A program made the translations under genes and the position numbers. Shown one piece after another: positions 20,767-35,317 of a stretch of 64,000 nucleotides of DNA (positions are counted from its first letter, which is position 1; each line of letters starts with the position of its first letter). The notes beneath the pieces were generated by a model that made no database searches, had not been told where the DNA came from, and saw nothing but the letters and a program-made list of their open reading frames with translations. The stretch lies in the NCBI RefSeq assembly GCF_055900595.2, contig NZ_CM148325.1; one strand, given 5' to 3'.

Positions 20767-21777
20767 TTAGATATGGTTAACGATTTCTTTAATCAGCGGC
20801 GGTCCTTTAAAAATAAAACCAGAATAAATTTGCACCAGTGAGGCCCCCGCAGCAATCTTTTCACGCGCAGCAATAACCGAGTCAATGCCGCCAACACCGA
20901 TGATCGGTAAGCGACCGTTTAATTCCTGTGACAAGCGGCGAATAATTTCTGTGCTTTTTAACTGAAGCGGACGACCACTTAAGCCACCGGTTTGATCACA
21001 ATTTTTCATTCCCTGAACCAGAGAACGATCGAGCGTGGTATTGGTTGCAATAACGCCATCAATATTATGGCGAACTAAACTATCGGCAACCTGGATCAAT
21101 TCTTTTTCAGAAAGATCCGGCGCGATCTTCACTGCGATCGGCACATATTTATGGTGCATCGCTTGCAAATCATTTTGCTTATTTTTAATCGCGGTTAAGA
21201 GATCATCCAGCGCTTCGCCATATTGCAGTGTGCGTAGTCCTGGGGTATTCGGCGATGAAATATTGATGGCGATATATCCCGCATAAGCATAGATTTTTTC
21301 CATACAAATCAGATAGTCATCTTTACCCTGCTCCACCGGCGTATCTTTATTTTTGCCGATGTTAATACCCAGGACGCCATCATAATGGGCTTTTTTTACG
21401 TTCTCTACGAGGTTATCAACGCCAAGATTATTAAAGCCCATACGGTTGATCAAACCTTCGGCATCTACCAGACGAAAGAGACGCGGCTTGTCATTACCTG
21501 GCTGTGGACGTGGCGTGACGGTACCGATCTCGATAGATCCAAACCCCATCGCGCCTAACGCGTCAATGCACTCCCCGTCTTTATCAAGACCGGCTGCCAG
21601 ACCAAGCGGATTTTTAAACGTCAGGCCCATGCAGTTAACAGGTTTCGCAGGCACTTTCTGCCGCACCAGTGCTTCAAACGGCGTTCCGGTAATGCGGCGT
21701 AATTGCTGAAAAGTAAACTCATGAGCGCGCTCTGGATCGAGCTGGAAAAGGGCTTTACGAACGAAGGGGTAGTACAT
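20767..21777 (-). CDS. pyrD: Dihydroorotate dehydrogenase (quinone)
   Basis: ATG at 21777 [38 protein letters not shown]..., 336 aa; ORF track extends 9 codons upstream. Confidence 0.95.
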
Positions 21778-21863
21778 GAACTCTCCTGGATTCCCGGTGT
21801 GCAAACCGGGGGCGTATTATGTGCGAGTTCGGACTAAAAGGGAATTGACCTGTGGCAAAAAAT

Positions 21864-26252: not shown

Positions 26253-26452
26253 TGCCGGATGTGGCGCACAAAACCAGCGGTTTCAACGGATTGTAGGCCT
26301 GATAAGACGCGTCAAGCGTCGCATCAGGCATTTGGGCACGGCTGCCGGATGCGGCGTGAACGCCTTATCCAGCCTACAAAACCAGCATTTTCAACGGACT
26401 TGTAGGCCTGATAAGACGCGTCAAGCGTCGCATCCGGCATTTGGGCTCAAAA
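26253..26452. repeat. REP/BIME cluster (several REP units) between ssuB and pepN
   Basis: Near-identical 50-bp units GGA(T/C)TTGTAGGCCTGATAAGACGCGTCAAGCGTCGCATC(A/C)GGCATTTGGGC at 26299-26348 and 26395-26445 plus GCCGGATGCGGCGTGAACGCCTTATCCAGCCTAC; classic REP palindromes. Confidence 0.75.
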
Positions 26453-32496: not shown

Positions 32497-32560
32497 TTTT
32501 ACTTTTAGTTACATATTTTTTCTTTTTGAAACTAAATCTTTATCTTTGTAGCACTTTCAC
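32497..32560. promoter_or_regulatory. OmpR-binding region (F1-F3 boxes) of the ompF promoter
   Basis: TTTTACTTTTAGTTACATATTTTTTCTTTTTGAAACTAAATCTTTATCTTTGTAGCACTTTCAC, tandem TTTAC/GAAAC-type repeats matching the recalled ompF upstream activator sites; ~150-210 bp upstream of the ompF ATG. Confidence 0.55.
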
Positions 32561-32741
32561 GGTAGCGAAACGTTAGTTTGAATGGAAAGATGCCTGCAGA
32601 CACATAAAGACACCAAACTCTCATCAATAGTTCCGTAAATTTTTATTGACAGAACTTATTGACGGCAGTGGCAGGTGTCATAAAAAAACCATGAGGGTAA
32701 TAAATAATGATGAAGCGCAATATTCTGGCAGTGATCGTCCC

Positions 32742-32750
32742 TGCTCTGTT
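32742..32750. repeat. IS10 target-site duplication, left copy (TGCTCTGTT)
   Basis: 9-bp direct repeat identical to 34080-34088 and immediately flanking the IS10 termini; 9 bp is the IS10/Tn10 TSD length. Confidence 0.85.
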
Positions 32751-32796
32751 CTGATGAATCCCCTAATGATTTTGGTAAAAATCATTAAGTTAAGGT

Positions 32797-32865
32797 GGAT
32801 ACACATCTTGTCATATGATCAAATGGTTTCGCCAAAAATCAATAATCAGACAACAAAATGTGCGA
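32797..32865 (-). ncRNA. IS10 antisense RNA-OUT (pOUT transcript), predicted position
   Basis: Position inferred from established IS10 organisation (RNA-OUT ~69 nt, from about bp 115 outward to bp 47, overlapping the transposase start at bp 108, which here is 32858); not independently verified by folding. Confidence 0.45.
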
Positions 32866-34066
32866 ACTCGATATTTTACACGACTCTCTTTACCAATTCT
32901 GCCCCGAATTACACTTAAAACGACTCAACAGCTTAACGTTGGCTTGCCACGCCTTACTTGACTGTAAAACTCTCACTCTTACCGAACTTGGCCGTAACCT
33001 GCCAACCAAAGCGAGAACAAAACATAACATCAAACGAATCGACCGATTGTTAGGTAATCGTCACCTCCACAAAGAGCGACTCGCTGTATACCGTTGGCAT
33101 GCTAGCTTTATCTGTTCGGGCAATACGATGCCCATTGTACTTGTTGACTGGTCTGATATCCGTGAGCAAAAACGGCTTATGGTATTGCGAGCTTCAGTCG
33201 CACTACACGGTCGTTCTGTTACTCTTTATGAGAAAGCGTTCCCGCTTTCAGAGCAATGTTCAAAGAAAGCTCATGACCAATTTCTAGCCGACCTTGCGAG
33301 CATTCTACCGAGTAACACCACACCGCTCATTGTCAGTGATGCTGGCTTTAAAGTGCCATGGTATAAATCCGTTGAGAAGCTGGGTTGGTACTGGTTAAGT
33401 CGAGTAAGAGGAAAAGTACAATATGCAGACCTAGGAGCGGAAAACTGGAAACCTATCAGCAACTTACATGATATGTCATCTAGTCACTCAAAGACTTTAG
33501 GCTATAAGAGGCTGACTAAAAGCAATCCAATCTCATGCCAAATTCTATTGTATAAATCTCGCTCTAAAGGCCGAAAAAATCAGCGCTCGACACGGACTCA
33601 TTGTCACCACCCGTCACCTAAAATCTACTCAGCGTCGGCAAAGGAGCCATGGATTCTAGCAACTAACTTACCTGTTGAAATTCGAACACCCAAACAACTT
33701 GTTAATATCTATTCGAAGCGAATGCAGATTGAAGAAACCTTCCGAGACTTGAAAAGTCCTGCCTACGGACTAGGCCTACGCCATAGCCGAACGAGCAGCT
33801 CAGAGCGTTTTGATATCATGCTGCTAATCGCCCTGATGCTTCAACTAACATGTTGGCTTGCGGGCGTTCATGCTCAGAAACAAGGTTGGGACAAGCACTT
33901 CCAGGCTAACACAGTCAGAAATCGAAACGTACTCTCAACAGTTCGCTTAGGCATGGAAGTTTTGCGGCATTCTGGCTACACAATAACAAGGGAAGACTCA
34001 CTCGTGGCTGCAACCCTGCTTACTCAAAATCTATTCACACATGGTTACGTTTTGGGGAAATTATGA
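32858..34066 (+). CDS. IS10 transposase
   Basis: 402-aa [84 protein letters not shown]...; ATG at IS10 bp 108 as in canonical IS10. Confidence 0.95.
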
Positions 34067-34079
34067 GGGGATCTCTCAG

Positions 34080-34088
34080 TGCTCTGTT
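34080..34088. repeat. IS10 target-site duplication, right copy (TGCTCTGTT)
   Basis: Identical to 32742-32750; continues in frame into ompF codons [10 protein letters not shown]. Confidence 0.85.
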
Positions 34089-35160
34089 AGTAGCAGGTAC
34101 TGCAAACGCTGCAGAAATTTATAACAAAGATGGCAACAAAGTAGATCTGTACGGTAAAGCTGTCGGTCTGCATTATTTCTCCAAGGGTAACGGTGAAAAC
34201 AGTTACGGTGGCAATGGCGACATGACCTATGCCCGTCTTGGTTTTAAAGGGGAAACTCAAATCAATTCCGATCTGACCGGTTATGGTCAGTGGGAATATA
34301 ACTTCCAGGGTAACAACTCTGAAGGCGCTGACGCTCAAACTGGTAACAAAACCCGTCTGGCATTCGCGGGTCTTAAATACGCTGACGTTGGTTCTTTCGA
34401 TTACGGCCGTAACTACGGTGTGGTTTATGATGCACTGGGTTACACCGATATGCTGCCAGAATTTGGTGGTGACACGGCATACAGCGATGACTTCTTCGTT
34501 GGTCGTGTTGGCGGCGTTGCTACCTATCGTAACTCCAACTTCTTTGGTCTGGTTGATGGCCTGAACTTCGCTGTTCAGTACCTGGGTAAAAACGAGCGTG
34601 ACACTGCACGCCGCTCTAACGGCGACGGTGTTGGCGGTTCTATCAGCTACGAATACGAAGGCTTTGGTATCGTTGGTGCTTATGGCGCCGCTGACCGTAC
34701 CAACCTGCAAGAAGCTCAACCTCTTGGCAACGGTAAAAAAGCTGAACAGTGGGCTACTGGTCTGAAGTATGACGCGAACAACATCTACCTGGCAGCGAAC
34801 TACGGTGAAACCCGTAACGCTACGCCGATCACTAATAAATTTACAAACATCAGCGGCTTCGCCAACAAAACGCAAGATGTTCTGTTAGTTGCGCAATACC
34901 AGTTCGATTTCGGTCTGCGTCCGTCCATCGCTTACACCAAATCTAAAGCGAAAGACGTAGAAGGTATCGGTGATGTTGATCTGGTGAACTACTTTGAAGT
35001 GGGCGCAACCTACTACTTCAACAAAAACATGTCCACCTATGTTGACTACATCATCAACCAGATCGATTCTGACAACAAACTGGGCGTAGGTTCAGACGAC
35101 ACCGTTGCTGTGGGTATCGTTTACCAGTTCTAATAGCACACCTCTTTGTTAAATGCCGAA

Positions 35161-35188
35161 AAAACAGGACTTTGGTCCTGTTTTTTTT
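35161..35188 (+). terminator. Intrinsic terminator of ompF
   Basis: AAAACAGGACTTTGGTCCTGTTTTTTTT: stem CAGGAC/GTCCTG with T8 run. Confidence 0.7.
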
Positions 35189-35317
35189 ATGCCTTCCAGA
35201 GCAATCTCACGTCTTGCAAAAACAGCCTGCGTTTTCATCAGTAATAGTTGGAATTTTGTAAATCTCCCGTTACCCTGATAGCGGACTTCCCTTCTGTAAC
35301 CATAATGGAACCTCGTC

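Follow-up and report, generated by a model that had tools for sequence, protein, structure and literature searches.

IS10 insertion at a recurrent site among the ompF signal-sequence codons: probably an insertional knockout with an incidental in-frame porin ORF

The ompF gene in the window (the whole 64,000-nt stretch of contig NZ_CM148325.1, RefSeq assembly GCF_055900595.2, that was analyzed) is interrupted by a copy of IS10 within its signal-sequence codons. Our verdict is that the allele is an ordinary insertional knockout at an insertion hotspot. It is probably a functional null or a severe hypomorph, in which the ORF that joins the tip of IS10 to the distal part of ompF is incidental. The features of the locus are listed in Table 1.

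Table 1. Features of the interrupted ompF locus (positions refer to the window)
Feature	Position	Strand	Details
ompF 5' stub, 15 codons (MMKRNILAVIVPALF), including the native start	32707-32754	+	read from sequence
9-bp target-site duplication TGCTCTGTT, left copy	32742-32750		direct repeat
IS10 (RefSeq label: ISVsa5 family), 1329 bp	32751-34079	+	exact terminal matches; outside end left, inside end right
RNA-OUT, IS10 antisense RNA	32796-32865	-	Rfam RF00240, 97.3 bits, E = 4.9e-19; near outside end
IS10 transposase ORF, 402 aa	32858-34066	+	direction same as ompF
GGGG, weak Shine-Dalgarno-like motif in IS10 inside end	34054-34057	+	16S rRNA 3'-end duplex -5.5 kcal/mol
Fusion ORF, 356 aa	34063-35133	+	6 IS10 codons (MRGSLS), then ompF codon 13 (A-L-L...) to stop
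Putative 16-codon leader	34063-34110	+	native signal-peptidase site ANA-AE between 34110 and 34111
9-bp target-site duplication TGCTCTGTT, right copy	34080-34088		direct repeat

We take the window to be ordinary E. coli chromosome carrying pepN, pncB, asnS, ompF, aspC, gloC, mepK, ldtD, and mukBEF, names that come partly from the ORF map. The interrupted gene was identified as ompF by sequence identity to intact loci that carry an ompF/aspC annotation (100% over 4,921 bp) and by the gene order asnS-ompF-aspC. Pfam Porin_1 matched the product of the fusion ORF. In silico deletion of IS10 and one copy of the repeat gave a sequence that differs from the intact ompF locus in strain Z0117EC0005 by 2 mismatches over 7,580 bp. 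At the insertion site, the intact relative L006 reads ATGATGAAGCGC...CCTGCTCTGTTAGTAGCAGG.

The outside-end 25-mer CTGATGAATCCCCTAATGATTTTGG had a single match in the window (32751-32775, + strand), and so did the inside-end 26-mer of IS10 (34054-34079, - strand). The sequence TGCTCTGTT is single-copy in the intact relative, and two copies of it flank IS10 in the window. It matches the IS10 target consensus NGCTNAGCN (core GCTNAGC) at four of the six core positions. Of the features of the IS10 family, the 1329-bp length, both termini, the 9-bp duplication, the 402-aa transposase, and RNA-OUT were present. The transposase is labeled as IS4-like ISVsa5 family in the RefSeq annotation of matching genomes, and Pfam DDE_Tnp_1 matched the equivalent gene in L010/L011. 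The window copy was compared with the 1329-bp copies in six other genomes, and the differences amounted to 4-13 nt. The earlier note had named the element as IS10 and the gene as ompF; the terminal matches, the duplication, and the ompF identity uphold both names. Read from the sequence, the insertion is a recent, simple IS10 transposition, and close relatives of the lineage keep ompF intact.

The insertion leaves two remnants of ompF. The 5' stub is closed by a TGA that IS10 nt 2-4 provide (32752-32754). The distal remnant is open from an ATG in the inside end of IS10, and the earlier note had proposed that this frame runs through the IS10 tip and the repeat into mature OmpF (AEIYNK...). Translation confirmed the proposal, and the 356-aa product is identical to NCBI WP_096965701.1, "porin OmpF". 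The ATG at 34063 is a by-product of the final transposase codons (...GGG AAA TTA TGA). It overlaps the transposase stop codon as ATGA (TGA at 34064-34066), a point absent from the earlier note. Both the ATG and GGGG were constant in all IS10 copies examined, and the chance part of the arrangement is the frame match only, 1 in 3. The ATG is in frame with ompF because of the position at which IS10 landed.

Rho-dependent polarity and the shielding of IS10 from outside promoters are expected to limit incoming transcripts. We infer that little read-through from the strong ompF promoter reaches the fusion ORF past 1.2 kb of transposase gene. No + strand sigma-70-like promoter was found near the inside end, either in a consensus scan of 32500-35300 or in a relaxed scan of 33650-34070 that admitted 8/12 matches and took in the last 430 nt of IS10. 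The consensus scan of 32500-35300 also found no convincing terminator within IS10. Since the scans gave no promoter, the case for transcription over the junction comes from the literature. Passages of PMC11481808 and PMC4574204 place two promoters, pIII and OUTIIp, in IS10 nt ~1000-1230 (~33750-33980 in the window), reading outward past the inside end. The same passages credit pIII to Simons 1983 and OUTIIp to Martinez-Garcia 2003, and describe the inside-end promoters as weak, yet able to express neighboring genes. With outward promoters reported there, some RNA from weak promoters likely crosses the junction, and trace expression is possible. The transcripts past the inside end that the earlier note had envisaged are plausible, given these passages. 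Translation of the IS10 transposase is repressed by RNA-OUT, Hfq, and Dam (PMC5006887), so reinitiation or coupling at the ATGA overlap would contribute little.

Initiation at the ATG was scored with a simplified, home-made thermodynamic model with terms for pairing to 16S rRNA, spacing (as a penalty), start codon, and mRNA unfolding (-35 to +35). In this crude model, ATG 34063 had a total score of 4.9, with a pairing term of -5.5 kcal/mol and an unfolding cost of 10.1. The median score was 8.2 for 600 random ATGs of the window, 25% of which were equal or better in total, and 3.6 for the first ATGs of the 41 ORFs of at least 200 aa. The native ompF start scored -0.3. For the Shine-Dalgarno-plus-spacing term, 8.5% of the 600 random ATGs were equal or better. 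The AUG was placed in a hairpin of the IS10 tip (UGAGGG-GAU-CUCUCA) in both predicted folds, of 70 nt and 101 nt. GGGG was predicted to be paired in both, its partner being either the target-repeat CUCU or an upstream CUCAAAA. The z-score of the start-region fold was just -1.5, and the structure is not strong. The earlier note had drawn attention to a Shine-Dalgarno-like motif. GGGG does lie 5 nt before the ATG, but it is unremarkable by the total score and is predicted to be paired. Nothing marks the modeled region as a designed ribosome-binding site.

The predicted leader has 16 residues, Arg at position 2, and a net charge of +1. Its core, GSLSALLVA, is uncharged and consists of nine residues, four of them strongly hydrophobic, with a Kyte-Doolittle sum of 17.2. 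As a rough guide to hydropathy, it was compared with a panel of 14 familiar signal peptides from E. coli and phages. The panel peptides have 19-26 residues. Their core sums, computed for 13, span 18.7-33.3, and that of the native OmpF leader is 33.3. By this rough guide, the IS10-ompF leader is shorter than all 14 peptides, and its core hydrophobicity is below all 13 computed values. On the best-8 and best-10 windows it comes near the weakest natural peptides, MalE and M13 g8p. Judged from these best-window values, the leader may be capable of Sec export.

The native leader loses KRNILAVIVP, of which NILAVIVP belongs to the native core. The hydrophobic core goes from 13 to about 9 residues; about half of the native core is lost. 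The native ANA-AE is kept in the fusion ORF, with small residues at positions -3 and -1 (AXA). With Arg 2, the net charge of +1, and ANA-AE, the leader has the positive n-region and the native cleavage site that the earlier note described. The further idea, of a signal peptide rebuilt by the target duplication through restoration of the h-region and the ANA-AE site, was rejected. The repeat adds three codons, A-L-L, and leaves the core about halved; the cleavage site, downstream of the insertion, had stayed intact throughout.

We propose the following course of events. IS10 transposed into the 9-bp sequence TGCTCTGTT, a favored target, among the codons for the OmpF signal sequence. The native promoter and ribosome-binding site are left driving the 15-codon stub, which stops within the outside end of IS10, and the rest of ompF is separated from both by 1.3 kb of IS10. 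Few transcripts would reach ATG 34063, as the poorly translated transposase gene would invite Rho-dependent polarity and the inside-end promoters would be weak. The modeled fold of the start region would lower initiation, and the leader, lacking about half of its core, would presumably be exported less well. Weak transcription, a folded start, and a sub-par leader together suggest little or no exported OmpF, at most a trace. The leak, if any, is probably negligible in effect.

The same site is occupied in other genomes. In the K-12 derivative ET12567, IS10 lies at the same 9-bp ompF site in the same orientation, and RefSeq gives a 356-aa "porin OmpF" from the equivalent ATG. The same-orientation allele is also present in the draft assemblies L005, L010/L012, and L013, whose flanks differ. 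Strains 613/571/774 carry IS10 at this site in the opposite orientation, and so does strain 3985, with a different IS10 variant. In AVS0747, the homologous ompC site (AGCTCTGCT) carries IS10, and the product begins with MRGSLRALLVAGAANA..., a leader with Arg in its middle and about five core residues left. Between the IS10 copy of the window and those at the other sites there are 4-14 nt differences, which supports independent insertions. The related alleles were found mostly in human clinical isolates (urine, blood, and sputum).

A junction survey of ompF nt 1-790 in 5,426 complete genomes gave five insertion lineages. Three of the five were at the TGCTCTGTT site (ompF nt 36-44), and the others were at nt 91 and nt 469. 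Five other sites in ompF match five of the six core consensus positions, versus four of six at the used site. A left-junction pattern covering both orientations (CCNGCTCTGNT + CTGAKRRATCCCCTMATRA) was found in 0 of 100,044 species-representative genomes and in no metagenome contigs, and thus added no insertion events. Beyond the core consensus, target choice by IS10 depends strongly on context (Bender & Kleckner 1992, cited in a passage of PMC2744996). From these sequences, we read the TGCTCTGTT site as a context-dependent IS10 hotspot in ompF.

Each tip of IS10 bears an ATG, 17 nt from the end at one tip and 35 nt at the other, and the two share a phase, so that insertions of the opposite orientation are likewise in frame with ompF. 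The outside-end ATG is without a Shine-Dalgarno motif and is predicted to lie within a strong hairpin. As both orientations occur, the fusion at the inside end shows no mark of having been selected, and orientation bias was rejected as evidence of selection. Where expression was selected, IS10 was found with its pOUT (outside) end facing the gene in 19 of 19 mutants and in ten evolved lines (PMC2744996). Unlike in those insertions, the inside end faces ompF in the window.

Against this background, it is unlikely that the allele is leaky to any useful degree, the leak having been proposed in the earlier note. A leaky allele would require transcripts that cross the inside end, whether from pIII/OUTIIp, from residual read-through, or from both, to be translated from ATG 34063 via GGGG, and the leader to be exported and cleaved, giving mature OmpF in a small quantity that still matters physiologically. 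The ORF is indeed open, in frame, and equipped with ANA-AE. The Shine-Dalgarno-plus-spacing term falls in the top 8.5% of random ATGs, but start codon and motif alike are paired in the predicted folds, and opening them would cost about 10 kcal/mol. The passages cited above report promoters that read outward past the inside end, and the ATGA overlap allows termination-reinitiation, whereas the scans found no + strand sigma-70-like promoter in the final 430 nt of IS10 even at 8/12 matches. The leader retains a positive N-terminus, an uncharged nine-residue stretch, and a perfect AXA site. Its best-window hydrophobicity overlaps that of the weakest natural peptides in the panel, yet its total h-region hydrophobicity is under that of every computed one. 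The ompC counterpart is used despite the central Arg and the roughly five core residues of its leader, and an orientation bias is absent; both observations argue against a leaky allele.

A selective explanation is much less probable still. In its broader form, which we regard as very improbable, IS10 would act as a "re-heading" element at codons 12-15 of ompF and ompC: either orientation would yield a shortened, partly working signal peptide expressed from IS promoters, and antibiotic selection might prefer this outcome over a null. If true, it would explain why three of the five ompF::IS10 lineages are at a 4/6-consensus site. Slightly less credible again is the claim that codons 12-15 recur since either orientation leaves an in-frame IS ATG and a partial signal peptide, with low, OmpR-independent porin favored over none. 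The same-phase ATGs 17 and 35 nt from the two tips fit this claim, as does the use of a 4/6 site by three of five lineages although five ompF sites reach 5/6. However, five lineages are a small sample, and the outside-end ATG lacks a Shine-Dalgarno motif and sits in a strong hairpin. ET12567, a laboratory strain that we take to lack dam function and to be free of evident selection on its porins, has the same allele. The reliance of IS10 targeting on context outside the core (Bender & Kleckner 1992, via the passage of PMC2744996) also argues against selection. As for the assembly, we give almost no credence to the idea that the assembler misplaced an IS10 copy into ompF. IS10 is multicopy, and repeats are often misassembled, but both junctions are exact, a perfect 9-bp duplication accompanies them, and the same junction occurs in independent assemblies, complete genomes among them. 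An insertional knockout at a hotspot is the explanation that we prefer.

RefSeq lists the IS10-disrupted genes as complete porins: the inside-end ompF fusions with 356 aa, the ompC fusion with 368 aa, and the outside-end fusions with 362 aa, which is the native length of OmpF. The in-frame ATG supplied by the IS10 tip at this phase leads to the label "porin OmpF" rather than to a pseudogene. The annotation marks the ompF genes with insertions at nt 91 and nt 469 as incomplete. Resistance-gene surveys that go by annotation or protein length would call strains with the fusions porin-positive. The recurrent 9-bp site in the ompF signal codons, with its ompC counterpart, would be a useful screening marker. 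The biology is ordinary, as porin loss through IS insertion is a standard path to lower antibiotic uptake. If small amounts of OmpF did come from the ORF, the allele would be an example from nature of an IS making a hypomorph instead of a null. The fusion proteins are already public as "porin OmpF" or "porin OmpC", and the allele falls in the known class of porin inactivation. In the literature on IS10/ISVsa5 with ompF and on ET12567 with IS10, we found no published description of the ompF::IS10 allele or of its OmpF phenotype.

The closest setting is that of the IS-inactivated enterobacterial porin genes (ompF, ompC, and ompK35/36), in which an IS likewise splits the coding region from its promoter and start. 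The allele in the window differs from the usual cases in that the insertion phase leaves a near-full-length ORF. Activation of neighboring genes by IS10 from pOUT, pIII, or OUTIIp offers another likeness, as transcription leaving IS10 could reach distal ompF. With IS10 upstream of cat or in a synthetic promoter, the downstream genes stay expressed (PMC4574204 and PMC11481808). Genes activated in this way keep their own ribosome-binding site and start codon, whereas the ompF remnant must take its start from the IS. The overlap of the transposase TGA with the ATG (34063-34065) resembles ATGA translational coupling. Coupling depends on ribosomes reaching the end of the upstream ORF, and with the IS10 transposase strongly repressed (PMC5006887) its share is expected to be very small. 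A further parallel is ISAba1 in adeS of Acinetobacter baumannii, where a truncated AdeS is made from the IS promoter Pout, and the transcript, the protein, and the phenotype were shown experimentally (PMC3498117). The ompF allele may share outward transcription from the IS (given the cited reports) and would share an N-terminally truncated host protein; it has an in-frame start upstream of the remainder. They differ in that the AdeS product is cytoplasmic, whereas the ompF fusion, known from its sequence, has the weak inside end facing it and would also need an export signal.

Both ends of IS10 carried an ATG, 17 nt from the tip at the inside end and 35 nt at the outside end. Counted from the tip, the two ATGs shared one phase, and both reading frames were free of stop codons to the end. 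Thus, IS10 inserted in either orientation can supply an in-frame start codon at one third of insertion positions.

Strains 613 and 3985 had IS10 at the same ompF site as the window, in reversed orientation. In both strains, the in-frame ATG came from the outside end, and the fusions began with MIFTKIIRGFIS… and MILIKIIRGFIS…, respectively. RefSeq labeled them 'porin OmpF' with 362 aa, which is the native protein length. The 613-type fusion protein was encoded by 21 contigs in public data.

IS10 was also found in the porin gene ompC. In strain AVS0747 (target AGCTCTGCT), the ompC fusion began with MRGSLRALLVAGAANA… and was annotated as 'porin OmpC' of 368 aa. In strain HBUT-L (target GGCGCAGCA), RefSeq still called a 'porin OmpC' CDS; its translation began with IHQGAANA…, and its start was a non-ATG codon within the IS10 tip. 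For ompF, RefSeq marked the insertions outside the hotspot (the 9-bp target in the signal-sequence codons) in OW968124 and TUM14759 as incomplete pseudogenes but gave hotspot insertions no such flag. The annotation outcome depends on the insertion phase.

Locations of IS10 insertions and other features (L numbers, loci from other genomes or assemblies; coordinates after a colon are within the locus)
Feature	Location	Strand	Remarks
IS10 tip ATGs	window 34063-34079; reverse complement of window 32751-32785		
ompF::IS10, opposite orientation	L007:1867-2955 (strain 613); L008:1867-2955 (strain 3985)		site homologous to window 34080-34088
ompC::IS10, orientation as in window	L004:2584-3690 (strain AVS0747)		ompC site homologous to ompF hotspot
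ompC::IS10	L009:1893-2957 (strain HBUT-L)		12 nt downstream of ompC hotspot
ompF::IS10 outside hotspot	L014 (OW968124), nt 469; L015 (TUM14759), nt 91		
ompF::IS10, altered left flank	L010:1-190		GCA_025049455.1, DAJAZU010000020.1
IS10 in ompF promoter/leader region	L002 (strain 201609); L003 (strain EC11)		human urine isolates
GATC (Dam) site	window 34070-34073		in IS10 inside end; codons 3-4 of fusion ORF
PyrD leader	window 21772-21845	-	Rfam, 98 bits
naRNA4	window 26296-26374	-	Rfam, 82 bits

At codon 34847-34849 (in …KFTNISGF…), the window's OmpF carries Ile in place of the Thr of K-12 (TNISGF vs TNTSGF). Intact relatives had this Ile too, indicating that it is a lineage polymorphism unlinked to the IS10 insertion. 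The PyrD leader and naRNA4 matches look like ordinary chromosomal features. The activity of the inside end is regulated by methylation at its GATC; as far as can be told, this site has no relevance to the fusion ORF.

At L010, the right junction was that of the window's ompF::IS10 allele. A fimbrial gene, not the ompF 5' end, lay left of the IS10 outside end, which points to a rearrangement mediated by IS10 or to misassembly. In strains 201609 and EC11, the ompF start was intact, and IS10 lay upstream with its inside end towards ompF. With IS10 in this position, ompF is probably no longer coupled to its native promoter.
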